From the IMG/VR virus record IMGVR_UViG_3300028920_000026, positions 64,001 through 128,000 of that record: 64,000 bases of DNA. The stretch is one strand, 5' to 3'. Source of the DNA: a virus. The position numbers were made by a program, and so were the translations under genes. Every line of letters begins with the position of its first letter. Positions within the stretch are counted from its first letter, which is position 1. Of the stretch, positions 2,600-46,454 are shown one piece after another. The notes under the pieces were generated by a model, which was not told the DNA's origin, searched no databases, and saw only the letters and a list, made by a program, of their open reading frames with translations.

Positions 2600-3164
2600 A
2601 CAAATGAAGGTGTTTGGCATCGGATTGAGCAAAACGGCAACGAAAAGCCTCAGCGAGGGACTCGGGATGCTTGGACTCAATTCAGTCCACTGCCCATTCG
2701 ATGACAATGCGTATGCTCAGATCCTTAAAGGAAACTTCGACCTTGATGTCTTCAAACGTTTTGATGCCGTTGCCGACATCCCATGCGCACTGTGCTTTGC
2801 GCAGCTTGATGTGCTGTACCCAAACGCAAAGTTTGTCCTTACTCAGCGCGAACGTAAAAGCTGGCTGGATTCGTGTGAAGAACACTTCACAAAGCGAAAC
2901 CCAAACAAGAGGTCTGAGCTCCTCCGCGTCGCCGTCTATGGATGCGGGAAGTTCAATAGAGACCGTTTCGATTGGGTGTACGACAACTACGTTGCTTCGG
3001 TCAGGCGGCACTTCGATGGCAGACAAGACAAGCTACTCGAACTCAATATAATCGCTGGAGAAGGTTGGGCCAAGCTGTGTAGATTCCTCGACAGTCCAGA
3101 GCCAAAGAGAGGATTTCCGAGGATCAAGAACCCGCGTCAGTTTACACAGGCAAGGAAGAAGTAA
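2586..3164 (+). CDS. sulfotransferase-family protein
   Basis: N-terminal KVFGIGLSKTATKSL resembles the PAPS-binding P-loop of Sulfotransfer-type enzymes. First gene of a tightly packed, overlapping sugar-modification operon. Confidence 0.5.
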   Translation: MDVYEQMKVFGIGLSKTATKSLSEGLGMLGLNSVHCPFDDNAYAQILKGNFDLDVFKRFDAVADIPCALCFAQLDVLYPNAKFVLTQRERKSWLDSCEEHFTKRNPNKRSELLRVAVYGCGKFNRDRFDWVYDNYVASVRRHFDGRQDKLLELNIIAGEGWAKLCRFLDSPEPKRGFPRIKNPRQFTQARKK

Positions 3165-4462
3165 TGTTTGAGGCAGATGACATCATCAATGCGATCAACG
3201 ACTGTCGCGTCAAGGTCGGTGTTGTGGGACTTGGATACGTTGGTCTTCCGCTTGCACTCGCGTTTGTAAAGTCGGGTATCCGTGTGTTTGGGTTCGATAC
3301 AAACAGCGAGAGGGCCTGGAAGATCGGCGCGGGTGAGTCACCGATGAGTCACATTAGCCATGACAGCGTCATGAATGCGCTGTCGAGCGGGCTTCTGAGG
3401 ATTTCGAACAAGGCAAATACGCTTGAAGAATGTGATGTCATCCTTGTTTGTGTGCCGACACCGCTTGGCAAGAAGGGCGATCCAAACCTCGAAAGCGTGA
3501 CTGATGTGGCAAGGACGATCGCCAGGTTGCCAATGAAACCACGTTTGATTGTCCTTGAATCGACGGTCTATCCAGGCGCAACAGAAGGCTCGTTCAAGGA
3601 CGCTCTTGAGGAGGGCGGCGCGCGATGCGGAGAAGACTTTCTACTTGCGTTCTCTCCTGAACGTGAGGATCCGGGAAATCCTGACTTCGGCACAACATCG
3701 ATCCCAAAGATCGTTGGTGGATTCGATGATGTGGCAACGAAGGTTGCAACAGCGTTCTATGATGTTGCGTTCAATATAGTTGTTCCAGTCGAATCGCCCA
3801 AGGTCGCTGAGGCTGCGAAGCTCCTCGAGAACACGTTTAGGATGGTCAACATCGCGCTAGTAAACGAGGTGAAGGTCGCGTTCTACAGGATGGGAATCGA
3901 TCCACTCAGCGTGATCGATGCAGCATCAACGAAACCCTTTGGGTTCATGCGGTTCGATCCTGGCCCAGGCGTCGGAGGACACTGCATTCCGATCGATCCG
4001 CACTACCTGAACTGGTCTGCTGATAGCTACGGTAGACGCATCAAGATGATCGATGTTGCAGCTCGTGTAAATGGAATGATGCCTGCATACGTCATTGACA
4101 GGATCCGTGTCGGGCTTGCGTCTCGTGGTGAGGCAATCAGAGGTTCTCGTATCCTCATCGTTGGTGTTGCATACAAGCGCGGCGTGGATGATGTTCGCGA
4201 GTCCCCCGCGCTGGCGCTTATCGAGGTGCTTCGCGGGTTCGGTGCAGAGGTTGAATACCACGATCCATTGGTAAAGAACCTCGAACTGGGGGAGCTCGAG
4301 TTTTCTAGCGTCCCGCTGAGCGACGTGTCAAAGTTTTCGGCTGCTGTTGTGGCTACAGATCAGGAGCGTGTTGATTGGAACGTCCTCATAGAGAACGCGA
4401 AGCTCGTCATCGACGCCAGAGGTGTCTACAGAGGCGACCATCAGAACCTGGTGAGAGCATGA
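3164..4462 (+). CDS. UDP-sugar 6-dehydrogenase (UDP-GlcNAc/ManNAc dehydrogenase family, WbpA/WecC-like)
   Basis: N-terminal Rossmann VGVVGLGYVGLPLA. Catalytic GGHCIPIDP cysteine motif. ESTVYPG motif. 432 aa, typical of UDP-glucose/GDP-mannose dehydrogenase family. Confidence 0.85.
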   Translation: MFEADDIINAINDCRVKVGVVGLGYVGLPLALAFVKSGIRVFGFDTNSERAWKIGAGESPMSHISHDSVMNALSSGLLRISNKANTLEECDVILVCVPTPLGKKGDPNLESVTDVARTIARLPMKPRLIVLESTVYPGATEGSFKDALEEGGARCGEDFLLAFSPEREDPGNPDFGTTSIPKIVGGFDDVATKVATAFYDVAFNIVVPVESPKVAEAAKLLENTFRMVNIALVNEVKVAFYRMGIDPLSVIDAASTKPFGFMRFDPGPGVGGHCIPIDPHYLNWSADSYGRRIKMIDVAARVNGMMPAYVIDRIRVGLASRGEAIRGSRILIVGVAYKRGVDDVRESPALALIEVLRGFGAEVEYHDPLVKNLELGELEFSSVPLSDVSKFSAAVVATDQERVDWNVLIENAKLVIDARGVYRGDHQNLVRA

Positions 4463-36090: not shown

Positions 36091-36492
36091 TTGTTCGACC
36101 TTTCAACTAAGGAAACAACAATGTCATACGCAATTGGCCATGTAGTATTTGGTATCGCATATGATCATGACGATCACGGCGAGAAACTGAAGCAGCTTGC
36201 AGAGACAAACGAAGAATTAGCCGAGTACAATCTGGAAGATATTGAATCGCTTGGTTTCGAAACACCCTATAACGGCTCAGCAATGTGGCCTATTGGTTGG
36301 ATTGGTAAATGCTACGATACCATTAATGAATGCAGCGATTTTGAAGTTGACTCGTGGTATGAATCGTTAAACTCAAAGCGTGAACAATTTCAGAGGGACT
36401 TTCAGGAATGTTTCGATAGTCTTCCTGAGTTTATGAAAGAGATGCTTAAAGACGAGAAGCCCAAACTTTGGGTTGTGTGGGGAACATCGTGA
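36091..36492 (+). CDS. hypothetical acidic protein
   Basis: 133-aa ORF with RBS-like AAGGAAACAACAATG. Confidence 0.5.
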   Translation: MFDLSTKETTMSYAIGHVVFGIAYDHDDHGEKLKQLAETNEELAEYNLEDIESLGFETPYNGSAMWPIGWIGKCYDTINECSDFEVDSWYESLNSKREQFQRDFQECFDSLPEFMKEMLKDEKPKLWVVWGTS

Positions 36493-36530
36493 CTTTGCAA
36501 GGTATTCAATACTGAAAATAGATAAATGAT

Positions 36531-36601
36531 GTGTCAGAAAGCAAACGGTGAGCTAACTGGTTGTGGCCCAGTTGTACGTGGTTCGACTCCACGCTGACAC
36601 A
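36531..36601 (+). tRNA. tRNA-His (GTG)
   Basis: Acceptor GTGTCAG/CTGACAC perfect, anticodon stem ACTGG/CCAGT loop TTGTGGC, T-arm CGTGGTTCGACTCCACG. Confidence 0.7.
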
Positions 36602-36806
36602 CTGATCGTCGTGTCCCTTAAAAACAGGCAGCGTTGGGGGACTTCAGATTCGAATCCTGGCTAACCAAAGTATAGCTGCCGCGACGATCAACTGCTTGGC
36701 GCCTACGTGATCTAGGTAGGATCTCACGTCTGCCTCGCAGCGAGCCTTCTCGAATATCCGGTGAGACGGAAATTTTCGGATGGCTGGCGTGGGGAATAGA
36801 TCGTAA

Positions 36807-36880
36807 CCGTACGTAGCCCAACTGGCAGAGGCCGCTGCCTCAGAAGCAGTGTAGTGCAGGTTCGAATCCCGCCGTGCGGA
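36807..36880 (+). tRNA. tRNA with CAG anticodon (Leu) but class I (short variable arm) architecture
   Basis: Acceptor CCGTACG/CGTGCGG, anticodon stem GCTGC/GCAGT loop CTCAGAA, 5-nt variable region, T-arm GCAGGTTCGAATCCCGC (one mismatch), A73. Confidence 0.5.
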
Positions 36881-36913
36881 CAAATATAAGAGTGGAAAAC
36901 GTAAATGAATTTT

Positions 36914-36985
36914 GGCGACGAAACCGAATGGCTAGGTGTGCCTCTCATAAGGGTATTGTCGTGGGTTCGATTCCCACCGTCGCTA
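36914..36985 (+). tRNA. tRNA with CAT anticodon (Met or Ile2-lysidine type)
   Basis: Acceptor GGCGACG/CGTCGCT, anticodon loop CTCATAA between TGCCT/GGGTA (GU-rich stem), T-arm GTGGGTTCGATTCCCAC. Confidence 0.55.
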
Positions 36986-37095
36986 CGGGCGTTGAATGAA
37001 GGTGATCTGAGGTGTTATGTAGACGGTATCGGTATCGATCCTTGAAACGGCTCCGATCGCGTTCGAACCCAGAACGTCCACGAAGGAGTAGGAAA

Positions 37096-37765
37096 ATGAA
37101 GGAAGGTGTCATCATCGAAATCACTGCCGCAGAAGGTGGTGCAGACGCAAAGCTCCTGGTCGCCGACCAGCTTCGAGCGTATACAAACGTCGCTTTGCGG
37201 AGGCGTCTTTGACGCTACGCTCATAGACGAGCGACCAGGGTTCATCAGCGTAGCGTTTGAAGGAAAGGGCGTAAGGTCGCTCTTTGCTGACGAACCTGGT
37301 GGACATCGCTGGCAGCGTGTTCCTCCAACAGAAAAGCGTGGCCGTGTCCACACATCAACGGTTACAGTCTCCGTTGTTGATATGAACGATCGTTCTGTTG
37401 AACGACTCGATATGAACGACATCGAGGTCACGGTCGCTCGTGGAAGTGGACCAGGAGGGCAGCACAGAAACAAGACAGAATCGTGTGTGACAGTCGTTCA
37501 CAGGCCCACAGGAACAACCGCCAAGGCAGACCTAAGAAGCCAACACAGGTCCCGTGAAATGGCACTCAAGGTACTCGAAGGGCGCCTGAAAATTGCAAAA
37601 GAGCGCCAGATGATGGATAATATGGCGCGGGAAAGAAAAGCTCAGAAAGGCTCCGGGATGCGTGGCGACAAGGTCAGAACGTACAGAGTACGCGATGATG
37701 TTGTTACAGACCATCGCACCGGCAGGAAACTGAAGCTTTCGTCCTGGTTGAAGGGTGATTGGTAA
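37096..37765 (+). CDS. class I peptide chain release factor lacking domain 1, expressed through a prfB-type +1 programmed frameshift (join 37096..37209, 37211..37765)
   Basis: RBS AAGGAG then ATG 37096. Frame-1 segment IEITAAEGGADAKLLVADQLRAYTNVA matches the RF domain-2 start. It ends at CTT TGA C (37207-37213), preceded by GGAGG at the E. coli prfB SD spacing. The +1 frame continues DATLIDERPG ... GGHRWQRVPPTE (RF1-like PxT region) ... GSGPGGQHRNKTES (GGQ) ... TDHRTG. Protein homology is continuous across the shift. Confidence 0.75.
37199..37213 (+). promoter_or_regulatory. programmed +1 ribosomal frameshift site (GGAGG CGT CTT TGA C)
   Basis: Same slippery CUU U GA C heptad and internal Shine-Dalgarno spacing as the autoregulatory site of bacterial prfB. 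Confidence 0.7.
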
Positions 37766-37768
37766 AAG

Positions 37769-38179
37769 ATGAAGATCCTTGTGTGCGGTTCTCGGTTCTG
37801 GAAGGATATCGAGACGATTGCGGACGTGCTTTCGACATTCTCTCCTGACACGACTGTGGTACACGGTGCGTGTCGGGGCGCTGACTTCATAGCCGGTGAG
37901 GTCTCTAAACAGCTTGGTTTCACGGTGCGCCCGTACCCTGCAAACTGGAACAGATTCAAGGTGAAACACAAAAATCCAGCTGGCATCATCAGAAACCAGG
38001 AGATGCTCGACAAGGAACACAGGTACGACGATCCGATCATACTGTGCATCGCGTTCCATGACGACCTTGAACGATCTGCAGGAACAAAGGACATGGTCGA
38101 ACGAGCATCCCGAGCAGCAATCCCAGTTAGGAACGTGAGGTCGTCCGATGCAGAAACAAGACAAAGGGACAATCGATAG
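37769..38179 (+). CDS. SLOG-fold protein (DUF2493/YspA-like)
   Basis: ILVCGSR ... VVHGACRGADFIAGEV matches the DUF2493 Rossmann-like SLOG core (VGGxRxF ... GGAxGAD). 136 aa. Confidence 0.5.
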   Translation: MKILVCGSRFWKDIETIADVLSTFSPDTTVVHGACRGADFIAGEVSKQLGFTVRPYPANWNRFKVKHKNPAGIIRNQEMLDKEHRYDDPIILCIAFHDDLERSAGTKDMVERASRAAIPVRNVRSSDAETRQRDNR

Positions 38180-38600
38180 GTTCATAAACGATTTTGCGTT
38201 TCTTAGTAACTTCCACCCAAGCACGATCAGGTGGCGCGGGTTGAAGTGGAAGACAGTCGAACACGCCTACCAGGCTGCAAAGACGCTCGACGAGAAGCAA
38301 CAGCAGATGATCCACGAGTCAAAAACACCTGCTGAAGCAAAGAAGCTTGGTAGGGCTGTAACGATTCGTCCTGACTGGGATGATGTCAAGTTGTCAATCA
38401 TGGAGGAACTCATTCGTCTCAAATTTGAGAATCCACTACTTCGATATGCGTTACTTCAAACTGGTGAAAGGCCGCTTGTTGAAGGAAATCATTGGAATGA
38501 CACAACGTGGGGGATATGTAGAGGTAAGGGACAAAACTTACTTGGTAAGATTCTTATGAAAGTTCGTGATGAGTGTCGTGACGAAGAAATTGCTTCCTGA
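38148..38600 (+). CDS. NADAR-family protein (YbiA-like, DUF1768)
   Basis: FLSNFHP ... VEHAYQAAK ... W.DVKL..M......KF motifs typical of NADAR domain. Overlaps upstream gene by 32 nt. Confidence 0.65.
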   Translation: MQKQDKGTIDRFINDFAFLSNFHPSTIRWRGLKWKTVEHAYQAAKTLDEKQQQMIHESKTPAEAKKLGRAVTIRPDWDDVKLSIMEELIRLKFENPLLRYALLQTGERPLVEGNHWNDTTWGICRGKGQNLLGKILMKVRDECRDEEIAS

Positions 38601-38862
38601 TGGATACATCGGCTCTCCTTGACCGAGCCCATTGCGCAGTCTTTTTGTTAGACGAATGGGGACACGGATGCTAACAACAGCTTGGCTGATCCGGGGCAGC
38701 TTACGAAATGCGTGAAATCGTGGCTAAATTTGGAGAAGGCGCGCTTGCAATGTCCACCTCCGTACATCGTTCACCTCACTACGACCAATGTCGGCGCGCC
38801 GCTGTTGACCATCCGTAACACTCCCACAAATTGAAAAAGGTTTTGAAGAGCTGATTGCAAAC

Positions 38863-38946
38863 GCTGGCGTGCCGGAACTGGCATACGGGCTGCGCTGAGA
38901 ACGCAGTGGGAGAAATCCCATGTGGGTTCGAGTCCCACCGTCAGCA
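38863..38946 (+). tRNA. tRNA-Leu (GAG), class II
   Basis: Acceptor GCTGGCG/CGTCAGC, anticodon stem CTGCG/CGCAG loop CTGAGAA, variable arm TGGGA-GAAA-TCCCA, T-arm GTGGGTTCGAGTCCCAC, A73. Confidence 0.7.
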
Positions 38947-38991
38947 CCGTGCCTTGTACTACGTGCAAATGATGTGTACAATTGGTATACG

Positions 38992-39324
38992 ATGCAAGGA
39001 AACCAATCATCAGTTCCTGTCTGTTCGACTGCGTGCAAGTACACCCGAAGCGACGAGCTCCTCTTTGACGCTGAAGAGTTCGAAGTTGTCAAGTACATCC
39101 GAGATGAAGTCAGGAAGCGGTGCGGGGATATACAGCCCTGGTTGCTGCTCACGAGAATCGAGTCCTTTGACAAGACGAACTACGAGCTATCTGTAATGAA
39201 CAAGCTCGGATACCGGATGACGGGTGAACCCATCGAACGGATCCGCGCAGTTGTTGCAGAGTTGCTTGAAACGTTGACGCTGCCCGACAAGAAGGAACAG
39301 GATGGCGAAAAAGAAGTCAATTAG
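38992..39324 (+). CDS. hypothetical protein
   Basis: Internal ATG downstream of the tRNA. 110 aa. Confidence 0.4.
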   Translation: MQGNQSSVPVCSTACKYTRSDELLFDAEEFEVVKYIRDEVRKRCGDIQPWLLLTRIESFDKTNYELSVMNKLGYRMTGEPIERIRAVVAELLETLTLPDKKEQDGEKEVN

Positions 39325-44760: not shown

Positions 44761-46002
44761 ATGGCTAGCCCACATGTAATCGAGTACCTGCGTACGCACA
44801 CGCTCTACGAACTGTATGAAAATCATGGCGTAAAGTTTCGTGTTGATGCGTTACGTACAAAGATCAGCCTGAACTATGATCAGCTGAAGCTTAAGGCAGG
44901 AGACATCATTGCAGAGTGTTGCCGCGGGCTCATCATTAGGCCAGACTTTGTTTGTAGGTTCGGCAGTGGAAGACTTCCTGCCGACGACGCAGCACTTGAA
45001 CACATGAAGCTCGGACAGTGCCACGTTGTTTCGCGTCCGATGGACAAGTTCTATAACTACGGTGAACATGGCACAGCAGATGTTGATCAGTCGACGATGA
45101 ATGTGCTCGAAAAGCTCGACGATACGATGTGTCACCTATACTTCGACAGGTTCTTAGGCCAGTGGTGCGTGGCAACGCGGTCGATTCCAGATGCTGATCT
45201 ACCCATCAGGCAGGGAGACATCGTCCTCAGCAACAAGACGTTCTCTGACGTCTTTTGGGAAGCGTTTGATGCAACCGTCAAGGCCCGATGTTCATCACGA
45301 GCTGACGCGTTGGATGACTTGATGGTGGGTTATACGTACGTCTTTGAGCTGACAACGCCACAGAATCGAATTGTTGTCAAGTACGACGAATCAAAGGTTA
45401 CGCTCATCGCAGTCCGGCAGACGCGAACAGGCCAGGAACTAAACATCTTCATCGATCATAGGGTGCGTCAGCTTCCATTCCCTCGACCTCGTACATGGCA
45501 CCTCAACGATCCTATTGCCATAGCGGCGCGTGCGGATTCGTTTGATCCGACGAAACTCGAAGGATTTGTTACAATTGATAACAAATTTAGACGTGTTAAG
45601 ATCAAGAACTCGCTGTGGGCCTCCTCATCAAAGATGAAGGACAGCGCAACAAACTCAAAGCGCAACGCCGTGCTCGCAGCGTTCAAAGGTACACTTGACG
45701 ATATCATGCCACTTGTGGACGATGAATCACGTGAATACCTAATGAAGGTCAAGGAAGGCATACGTGAGTACGTTGACGCAACACAGATCATGTACAACCG
45801 GTTCGCAGAACAGTGTGAGCCTGGAGACTACAAGACATTCGCGTCTCTCGTAAACGCTGCCCAACCTCCGATACACGCTGCATACTTCATGACGTTCAGG
45901 GGTCGGTGTAAGAACGTGCGTGAGTTTTTTGACCAGGCGACGGCGAACGGACGTTTGACTCGCAAGACCCTCGACGTGATTATTCAACACCTTGGGCTGT
46001 AG
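44761..46002 (+). CDS. RNA ligase 1 (RnlA)-like protein with variant motif I (KLDD)
   Basis: VLEKLDDTMCHLY at the motif I position (KxDG with G to D). EGFVTIDNKFRRVKIKN resembles nucleotidyltransferase motifs IV/V. 413 aa. Confidence 0.55.
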   Translation: MASPHVIEYLRTHTLYELYENHGVKFRVDALRTKISLNYDQLKLKAGDIIAECCRGLIIRPDFVCRFGSGRLPADDAALEHMKLGQCHVVSRPMDKFYNYGEHGTADVDQSTMNVLEKLDDTMCHLYFDRFLGQWCVATRSIPDADLPIRQGDIVLSNKTFSDVFWEAFDATVKARCSSRADALDDLMVGYTYVFELTTPQNRIVVKYDESKVTLIAVRQTRTGQELNIFIDHRVRQLPFPRPRTWHLNDPIAIAARADSFDPTKLEGFVTIDNKFRRVKIKNSLWASSSKMKDSATNSKRNAVLAAFKGTLDDIMPLVDDESREYLMKVKEGIREYVDATQIMYNRFAEQCEPGDYKTFASLVNAAQPPIHAAYFMTFRGRCKNVREFFDQATANGRLTRKTLDVIIQHLGL

Positions 46003-46004
46003 CC

Positions 46005-46454
46005 ATGGTCTACCAGAACAGGTTTATTCTAGCGGCCCTTCGAGCGGTACGAGAGACTGGTTTTGACCCTCGTCTAAAGGCACATGTGGGTGCTGTCATC
46101 ACACGTGGTGGCTCGATCATAAGCGTTGCTACGAATACGTACGGGACCGATCCCTATACGCTGGCTCGTACAGAGAACGGATACGTAGACTCTGTGCATG
46201 CCGAGGTGAACGCGATCATGCGAGTCCGCCACAAGGTTGATCTTGATGGGACCAAAATGTGGGTTGTACGCCTGACAAAACCAAATCCAGATCTTTTAAC
46301 TGACAGTATGATTGCTCTTGCAGAACCTTGCAACGTATGCAAGAACGTGATCATGCGACATGGTATCAGGCGTGTATATTACACGATTGACGAACAGACA
46401 ACAGCGTGTTGGCGAGTTCCACGAATTGACGTACCGCGCAAACATCGACCTTAA
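46005..46454 (+). CDS. CMP/dCMP-type zinc deaminase (ComEB/Cd-like; TadA-like function not excluded)
   Basis: HAEVNAI ... PCNVCKNVIMRHGIRRVYY zinc-binding H(A)E / PCxxC signature with the GIxxVxY tail typical of dCMP deaminases. Confidence 0.65.
   Translation: MVYQNRFILAALRAVRETGFDPRLKAHVGAVITRGGSIISVATNTYGTDPYTLARTENGYVDSVHAEVNAIMRVRHKVDLDGTKMWVVRLTKPNPDLLTDSMIALAEPCNVCKNVIMRHGIRRVYYTIDEQTTACWRVPRIDVPRKHRP

Follow-up and report, generated by a model that had tools for sequence, protein, structure and literature searches.

The gene prfB, which encodes release factor 2 (RF2), is the textbook case of autoregulatory +1 frameshifting, a mode of control so far treated as RF2-specific. A pause at CUU-UGA-C and pairing between a Shine–Dalgarno (SD) sequence and the anti-SD at 3-nt spacing move the peptidyl-tRNA-Leu from CUU to UUU; in Escherichia coli the site is at codon 26. 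We analysed a locus with this architecture in a stretch of 64 000 nt of viral DNA (the window; positions 64,001 to 128,000 of the IMG/VR record IMGVR_UViG_3300028920_000026; coordinates below are those of the window). Positions 37096–37765 very probably form one gene of a huge phage (contig of at least 331 kb), which would be expressed via programmed +1 frameshifting as a 222-amino acid (aa) RF1-type release factor (RF) lacking domain 1.

A survey of >12,000 bacterial genomes found no convincing case of this kind in prfA, with conserved frameshift elements in 0 of 34 disrupted prfA genes (Prince et al. 2025, PMC12421855). Atkins et al. (2016, PMC5009743) stated that neither an early in-frame UGA in RF2 genes nor its UAG counterpart in RF1 genes was known, and cited the Mimivirus eRF1 gene as the sole viral RF gene needing readthrough and frameshifting; control of a bacterial RF gene by readthrough of an in-frame stop had been hypothesised before prfB was sequenced (PMC5009743). 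The Mimivirus/Megavirus gene (Jeudy et al. 2012, PMC3521657) resembles the phage genes described here in being a viral RF gene whose internal stops are passed by frameshift and readthrough, with a bacterial-like autoregulatory logic; it differs in being of eRF1 type, in belonging to a eukaryotic virus and in having both events in one gene, whereas the phage events are in separate clades. Papers on huge phages and on recoded phages name RF1 and RF2 genes and, where they deal with release factors, mention neither recoding nor truncation (the word ‘frameshift’ was not found in the huge-phage paper); phages go unmentioned in a review of RF evolution (PMC6514570). No published frameshifted or domain-1-less phage RF1 was found in the full-text literature, subscription-only literature being outside the search. 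What would be new is that the mechanism known from prfB has been re-created at another position, in a different, truncated and phage-specific lineage of RFs.

The window gene shares with prfB the SD-like element, the 3-nt spacer, the CUU UGA C site with a predicted +1 shift, Asp as the first residue after it, and a class I RF as the product. It differs from prfB in being of RF1 type, in lacking domain 1 and in belonging to a family found in phages. Also, the phage site is in domain 2, whereas the prfB site is near the start of the open reading frame (ORF), in domain 1 (PMC12421855); as the two are in different domains, the phage and prfB sites are not homologous. Relatives of the phage gene use UAG and UAA as well, in contrast to UAG in 0 of 8,164 prfB motifs (PMC12421855). 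The elements of the gene are as follows.

37083–37088, plus strand: Shine–Dalgarno AAGGAG, 7 nt 5′ of the ATG at 37096, the true start
37096–37212, plus strand: frame-0 ORF, 38 codons and TGA, with the first strand and helix alpha5 of RF domain 2
37199–37203, plus strand: internal SD-like GGAGG, 3 nt 5′ of the shift codon, with CGT as spacer
37207–37213, plus strand: predicted shift site CTT_TGA_C, i.e. P-site Leu codon, premature stop and +4 C
37211–37765, plus strand: +1-frame ORF from GAC (Asp39) to TAA (37763–37765), with the remainder of domain 2 and domains 3 and 4
37214–37254, plus strand: predicted hairpin (GCUACGCU ... AGCGUAGC) directly 3′ of the shift site, role uncertain
37322–37330, plus strand: Pro-Pro-Thr at the RF1 PxT stop-recognition position, inside GGHRWQRVPPTEKRGRVHTST and QRVPPTE
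37454–37462, plus strand: GGQ catalytic motif of domain 3, within GSGPGGQHRNKTES, invariant in family alignments

As read from the sequence, the ATG (37096–37098) is preceded by AAGGAG, and frame 0 translates as MKEGVIIEITAAEGGADAKLLVADQLRAYTNVALRRRL up to its stop. Its last codons are CGG AGG CGT CTT TGA C, with CTT at 37207–37209, TGA at 37210–37212 and C at 37213; exactly 3 nt separate GGAGG from CTT. The +1-frame translation opens with DATLIDERPGF..., and skipping of T37210 joins the frames into a spliced product of 222 aa with the expected junction peptide ...NVALRRRLDATLIDER.... Three features of a prfB-type cassette are present: a CUU-stop with an RF-homologous +1 continuation, an SD-like element ~3 nt upstream and a C after the stop. 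Given its sequence and its counterparts in relatives, we name the internal GGAGG as the putative frameshift stimulator. GGAGGNNNCTTTGAC, with its 12 specified bases, is found at a single place in the 64-kb window, whereas 0.03 occurrences are expected from shuffles. In a crude, greedy ORF call (≥80 aa, code 11, covering 83% of the window) the base next to gene-end TGA stops was T in 15, A in 10 and C in 4 cases out of 34; the context of the internal stop, TGA-C, is the rarest TGA context at gene ends of the window. In E. coli, C after UGA makes the weakest termination context.

Searches with the spliced product gave Pfam matches to PCRF (residues 3–91) and RF-1 (residues 103–207), and phmmer against PDB aligned residues 5–209 with residues 107–318 of Thermus thermophilus RF1, ungapped at the junction (E = 5e-40). 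Among NCBIfam models the RF1 models ranked first (190 and 181 bits), followed by RF2 (114), PrfH (78) and ArfB (27). The RF1 equivalog cutoffs were not reached (NF001859, 190 versus 400; TIGR00019, 181 versus 423) because the matches start only at profile position ∼105, the matched part of the model being limited to positions 105–338. The product is not an RF2 by score (TIGR00020, 113.6 versus the cutoff of 370), by its tripeptide (PPT, not SPF) or by its lack of domain 1, and its PrfH score was also below the cutoff (TIGR03072, 78.2 versus 166.65).

The features by which RF1 recognizes stop codons are found in the product: PxT with flanking Gln and His-Thr in QRVPPTEKRGRVHTST, along with GPGGQ. 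The loop GGHRWQRVPPTEKRGRVHTST agrees with RF1 at Gln, Pro-x-Thr and His-Thr-Ser-Thr, the SPF of RF2 being absent. These residues (Gln73, Pro76, Thr78 and His85-Thr86-Ser87-Thr88 of the window protein) occupy the places of the RF1 residues that read the second (A) and third (A or G) base of the stop codon; the canonical RF1s that we recovered have PVT, PET or PKT at the same tripeptide position. Frame 0 encodes the element EITAAEGGADAK, the counterpart of the alpha5 tip EIRAGTGGEEA of RF1. An RF domain 1 is not encoded upstream, where there is no room for it since a tRNA ends at 36985, 110 nt 5′ of the ATG. In domains 2–4, in the Q-x-x-P-x-T...H-T-S-T loop, in GGQ and in its best sequence and fold matches the product is like RF1 (PrfA). 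The differences, apart from the score, are the absence of the ∼105-aa domain 1 and of a short insertion before the GF/GGY strand, the alpha5 tip (AEGG.DAK versus GTGG(D/E)EA), and the predicted programmed frameshift, of which no case was found in bacterial prfA (PMC12421855). We characterized the spliced product as a predicted domain-1-less, RF1-type class I RF.

An AlphaFold2 model, built from an alignment of the spliced protein with its database relatives, had a mean predicted local distance difference test (pLDDT) score of 87.3; the score was 92–96 over residues 11–70 including the junction (∼95 there) and 89–96 in the part encoded by frame 0. The top Foldseek matches of the model were ribosome-bound RF1 structures, with template modelling scores of 0.82–0.83, against ∼0.75 for RF2. 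The junction, Leu38/Asp39, sits between the helix of residues 16–35 and the strand of residues 39–46 of domain 2. An earlier note on this DNA had proposed that two frames jointly encode an RF, with GGAGG placed 3 nt before CTT TGA C at the end of the frame from ATG 37096 and with RF homology running seamlessly over the junction; the sequence itself, phmmer and Pfam bear this out. It had also described a product without domain 1, with GGQ kept and with an RF1-type PxT instead of SPF, which agrees with the hidden Markov model scores (190 for RF1 above 114 for RF2). The absence of homology to RFs, which the note had named as grounds for giving up the idea, was not seen: the models match in the order RF1 > RF2 > PrfH. 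The size it gave, ∼227 aa, has to be revised to 222 aa.

The Logan assembly of SRR8554435 coincides with ENA ERZ27252253 (a contig of 331,213 bp) over 2,660 bp including the shift site; with the two assemblies identical there, no single-base indel of the kind that would create one continuous frame was seen. Near-identical DNA was not found by megablast among cultured or deposited phages, and tblastn against deposited phages gave two family members only, both uncultured huge phages. LR745208 (locus L001; 485 kb, 42% identity) has CGG AGG GGT CTT TGA C at the same codon. Dozens of further ∼220-aa RF1-like relatives with 40–65% identity came from scans of IMG/VR and metagenomes, residing in contigs of 26–71% GC and up to 1.17 Mb in length. 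Within the 80 top-ranking matches from 185,579 species genomes, the short family was present in just three contigs of metagenome-assembled genomes, all with the +1 site, and the other matches were ordinary full-length RF1; the family, therefore, appears to be phage-specific.

We classified, as DNA, 61 genes of the short family with an intact 5′ part; the loci were the best-scoring ones rather than a random sample, and the tallies are uncorrected for phylogenetic relatedness. A +1 shift is needed in 35 genes, in 34 of them at CTT-stop (premature stop TGA in 25, TAG in 8 and TAA in 2; C at +4 in 30). Another 22 genes carry an in-frame premature stop with the frame unchanged (21 TGA and 1 TAG), followed by A (15) or C (7) and never by G or T; the remaining 4 genes are uninterrupted. 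GGAGG is located exactly 3 nt 5′ of CTT in 16 of the 34 CTT-stop genes, and 24 of the 35 genes of the +1 type have some SD-like core, 4 nt or longer. In L025 (∼3001–3417) the frame changes at a place that lacks CTT-stop, and ∼18 aa following the EGG motif seem to have been deleted; this gene probably represents a decayed copy or a misassembly.

We inspected the 120 closest database proteins, each 170–235 aa long, for a signature of the cassette. We found that 87 of them are 3′ ORFs that carry at the N-terminus the +1-frame signature xF[D/E/S/N/K], commonly GGVFD, which is GGAGG-NGT-CTT-TGA-C read one base on; the stop deduced from the signature was TGA in 77 (∼89%), TAG in 8 and TAA in 2. Another 17 are uninterrupted proteins of ∼220 aa that start as the window gene does and read ...RRG(F/L/I)(S/E/D)... 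through the site, which confirms the spliced reading. Gene callers systematically misannotate the short RF genes as N-terminally wrong proteins of 170–215 aa. From these comparative data a programmed event appears very likely.

In a codon alignment of 29 genes of the +1 type, the conserved Arg whose codon contributes to the SD-like element is encoded by CGG in 19 of 23 genes. CGG accounts for just 1–6 of 18–28 codons at 15 further conserved Arg columns in these genes; hence selection acts on the RNA signal, beyond the protein sequence. The Leu codon before the stop is CTT in 29 of 29 aligned genes. Relatives that share the CTT-stop-C break at the same codon have diverged at most synonymous sites.

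The hairpin at 37214–37254 (outer stem of 8–9 bp; z = −3.0 and −3.5) is the most stable 45-nt stretch of the gene. We looked for its conservation 3′ of the shift site in relatives and found none (median percentile 0.5–0.7); a conserved downstream RNA structure was rejected as a stimulator, the window gene having a strong hairpin that is not seen family-wide.

The course of events would be as follows. Initiation at ATG 37096 would bring the ribosome to the site with CUU in the P site and UGA-C in the A site. The weak terminator UGA-C would make the ribosome pause, GGAGG 3 nt upstream would pair with the anti-SD of 16S rRNA, and the peptidyl-tRNA-Leu would re-pair from CUU to UUU, with decoding restarted at GAC in the +1 frame. 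Efficient termination at UGA would yield a 38-aa peptide only and slow termination the full factor, so that the output of the gene would be inversely coupled to termination efficiency at the early stop. For the window gene the coupling would be to host RF2 activity, since the stop is UGA while the recognition loop predicts reading of UAA and UAG. The product would bind the A site at UAA or UAG and hydrolyse peptidyl-tRNA through GGQ; it may supplement host RF1 in infection, beside the ∼38 tRNAs of the phage. Domain 1 of RFs contacts the L11 stalk and RF3, and its loss predicts independence from RF3 and the L11 stalk. The shifting and its efficiency, the codon specificity, the RF2 dependence and the benefit to the phage are inferred rather than shown. 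Control of an RF1-like factor by host RF2, as put forward in the earlier note, would follow for this gene if PPT confers UAA/UAG specificity; it does not readily carry over to the relatives, in some of which the early stop is TAG or TAA or is passed with the frame unchanged. Across the family, the rule looks to be that synthesis is gated by inefficient termination at an early stop, not by sensing of RF2 specifically.

A pseudogene or a 1-nt assembly indel, with a functionless break of the frame, could be suspected in a single metagenome-derived sequence whose gene is split by gene callers; yet the sequence is identical in two assemblies, the break is at the same codon and in the same CTT-stop-C heptamer in dozens of diverged relatives, both halves have RF motifs and a confident fold, and the 12-base signal is expected 0.03 times per window, so the chance of this explanation is close to nil. 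We consider it very improbable that there is no shift and that two products are made, the 38-aa peptide and an internally started protein. Such a protein could begin, as gene callers predict, at GTG 37106 in the +1 frame, which opens a 219-aa ORF directly preceded by AAGGAA and represented by database entry P0001, but the resulting N-terminus (MSSSKSLPQKVV...) has no homology or conservation, and the 3′ ORFs of relatives start at arbitrary points. Moreover, the frame-0 element EI(R)AAEGG.DAK is the alpha5 tip in every family member and in RF1, and a protein devoid of it would have an incomplete decoding domain. That the product is a rescue factor of the PrfH or ArfB kind, acting on damaged or stalled ribosomes instead of reading stop codons, is improbable. 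PrfH is likewise a class I RF paralogue with no domain 1 (PMC6514570), the neighbourhood is one of tRNA and RNA repair with a T4 Rnl1-like ligase, and L001 has lost PxT. PrfH, however, is operonic with RtcB and has no PxT or SPF reader, while the phage gene keeps the RF1 loop, strongly conserved in nearly all members, and has no adjacent RtcB (none among 10 neighbouring ORFs scanned); the PrfH model scores 78 bits against 181–190 for the RF1 models, and an ArfB-type C-terminal tail is absent. As for a module for stop-codon reassignment, RF1 and RF2 genes are described in TGA- or TAG-recoded phages (bioRxiv 10.1101/2021.08.26.457843), and Lak, crAss-like, Jade and Agate phages are like the window phage in encoding class I RFs. 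These are, however, discussed within code switching, with no mention in the passages on release factors of a recoding site or a missing domain 1, whereas the window phage uses the standard code. By the crude ORF call its genes end in TGA (34), TAA (24) and TAG (14), and suppressors are 0 of 38 tRNAs, so a link to stop-codon reassignment is not supported. At in-frame-TGA loci the longest neighbouring ORFs (200–700 aa) have essentially the length under code 4 that they have under code 11, and several in-frame-TGA RF genes themselves end in TGA; we regard reassignment as having almost no probability. Code 4 was rejected for the in-frame-TGA clades on the unchanged length of the longest neighbouring ORFs, total ORF length under codes 11, 4 and 15 being uninformative.

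The same +1 shift could serve a self-regulating factor that reads UGA, or all stops, despite its RF1-like loop, with negative feedback as in prfB. In prfB the premature stop is the codon of its own product, 98.6% of the genomes that bear the motif having TGA and none of the 8,164 motifs having TAG (PMC12421855). In the phage family TGA likewise makes up ∼89% in the closest relatives, yet TAG and TAA occur with no change of the loop, for which a factor reading any stop would be the simplest explanation. The tripeptide varies at its third residue (T, N, S or G) and may begin with S, and Asp replaces the Glu of RF1 at the alpha5 tip. Still, the window protein has the full set of RF1 residues from Gln73 to Thr88 listed above, its RF1 score exceeds that of RF2 by 76 bits, and we know of no natural omnipotent bacterial-type RF; self-regulation is, in our estimate, unlikely, with a chance that is nevertheless worth keeping in mind. 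Several points weigh against a programmed shift in an RF1-type gene under the control of host RF2. The frameshifting has been deduced entirely from sequence. A UGA gate would not be autoregulatory if the factor is RF1-specific, and its selective logic would then be unclear. Premature TAG (8/35) and TAA (2/35) occur in relatives with indistinguishable recognition loops; therefore, one has to assume a generic gate or else a specificity other than the one suggested by the motif. The tripeptide varies in the family (PPT, PPN, SPT, PET, PPG and one deletion), unlike in canonical RF1, so stop-codon specificity may be relaxed. About one-third of the +1-type relatives have no obvious SD-like element, and the two identical assemblies may stem from related or shared raw reads.

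By inspection, no correlation was seen between the kind of premature stop and the recognition tripeptide. In the frameshifted gene of L001 (LR745208.1, ∼3215–3235) the PxT is lost (QRTSNGRIHSS, not QRVPPTEKRGRVHTS) and GCGGQ is present; its product may have lost the usual mode of stop-codon reading. CTT_TAG_C cassettes were observed in L015, L028, L031, L044, L046, L050, L062 and L082, and CTT_TAA_C in L045 and L055. Seven of the TAG-type genes are complete at the 3′ end (L028 is truncated), and five of these also terminate in TAG, as does L016, which has an in-frame TAG; no TGA-type gene does. TAG makes up 31% of ORF ends at TAG-type loci versus 20% at TGA-type loci, a weak trend in small numbers.

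In T. thermophilus RF1 the counterpart of the shift site is at about residue 140, within domain 2. Canonical RF1s from our scans have R-R-G-W here (YAERRGWKVEI in L136, YAQKRGWGF in L077); the window protein has R-R-R-L before the junction and D after it, and one sister clade has G-TGA exactly at the position of the canonical Trp codon. Spelled as CGG AGG GGN TGG, RRGW would have offered beforehand both an SD-like element and a codon that a single transition turns into TGA, which may be why the site arose at this place. A second recoding position lies ∼9 codons further 3′, aligned with the aromatic residue of RF1 GF/GGY; one clade has in-frame TGA or TAG there, and in two of its members, L018 and L111, a CTT_TGA_C +1 site is found instead. 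In-frame stops were seen at about codon 46 in L003, L005, L006, L009, L011, L016 and L026 and at about codon 36 in L034–L036, L038, L039, L043, L049, L052–L054, L063, L067, L070 and L099; those of both sister clades align with a Trp or an aromatic residue of canonical RF1. These clades look like candidates for programmed readthrough in a bacterial-type RF gene.

In a neighbour-joining tree (crude, with no support values) the short family is apart from full-length RF1, and recoding types are largely clade-specific; uninterrupted genes are scattered within the +1 clade, and TGA, TAG and TAA have been interchanged several times. Within its clade the +1 site seems to be ancestral and to have been lost here and there, a pattern that the phage family shares with prfB (PMC12421855). 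A tRNA-Trp(CCA) gene was observed near the RF gene in four of six in-frame-TGA loci that have any tRNA (L003, 4975–5048; L009, 1511–1587; L054, 828–902; L070, 745–818) versus one of nine frameshift-type loci (L061). By analogy with a Hirsh-type suppressor, such a tRNA might read the in-frame UGA of the RF gene nearby.

Taken jointly, these observations permit a reading that we offer tentatively, as one that may well prove wrong: a phage-specific family of minimal class I RFs, nearly always gated by an early stop, in which the gate would have arisen repeatedly and the termination capacity of the cell would be monitored and taken over. The gate appears to involve two positions at aromatic residues of RF1 (one being the Trp of RRGW, GGAGG-GGN-UGG), two mechanisms and three stops; the mechanisms would be a +1 shift at CUU-stop and, presumably, readthrough of an in-frame stop.

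The RF gene sits within the tRNA region of the phage. The nearby features are as follows.

36914–36985, plus strand: tRNA with anticodon CAT (Rfam tRNA, 53.8 bits; missed by ARAGORN)
37769–38179: SLOG/YspA-like gene, directly 3′ of the RF gene
38148–38600: NADAR gene, overlapping the SLOG/YspA-like gene
38863–38948, plus strand: phage tRNA-Leu(GAG), the isoacceptor reading CUU, given for context only
44761–46002: T4 Rnl1-like RNA ligase gene, ∼7 kb from the RF gene and within the tRNA region

The tRNA at 36914–36985 is the third CAT tRNA among 38 tRNAs of the window, possibly tRNA-Ile2 or the initiator. An Rfam scan of 36400–39100 gave tRNAs only, and a scan for promoters and terminators gave no signal above chance. 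The SLOG/YspA-like and NADAR pair follows the RF gene in both source assemblies; further neighbours are an HNH gene and a methyltransferase gene, and a dCMP deaminase gene is located beside the ligase gene (the pair spans 44761–46454). The RF gene of relatives is within 3 kb of tRNA genes in 22 of 52 loci, often inside arrays. Two relatives, L022 (1558–1917) and L054 (4598–4977), have a tmRNA gene a few kb or less from the short RF gene, which points to a clustering of termination and rescue functions.

If confirmed, this would be the first RF1-type gene with prfB-like frameshifting and, in the sister clades, the first natural control of a bacterial-type RF gene by readthrough of an early in-frame stop. 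It would show that the gating of an RF by a signal of its own kind is a solution reached convergently, and the family would offer natural variants for dissecting the contributions of the SD-like sequence, stop identity and the +4 base. The hypothesis of an RF that lacks the domain interacting with RF3 and L11, and is produced only if termination is slow, can be tested directly. It bears on the control of host translation by huge phages with near-complete tRNA sets: such phages would monitor and seize termination in the infected cell, possibly with a factor acting on more than two stop codons.

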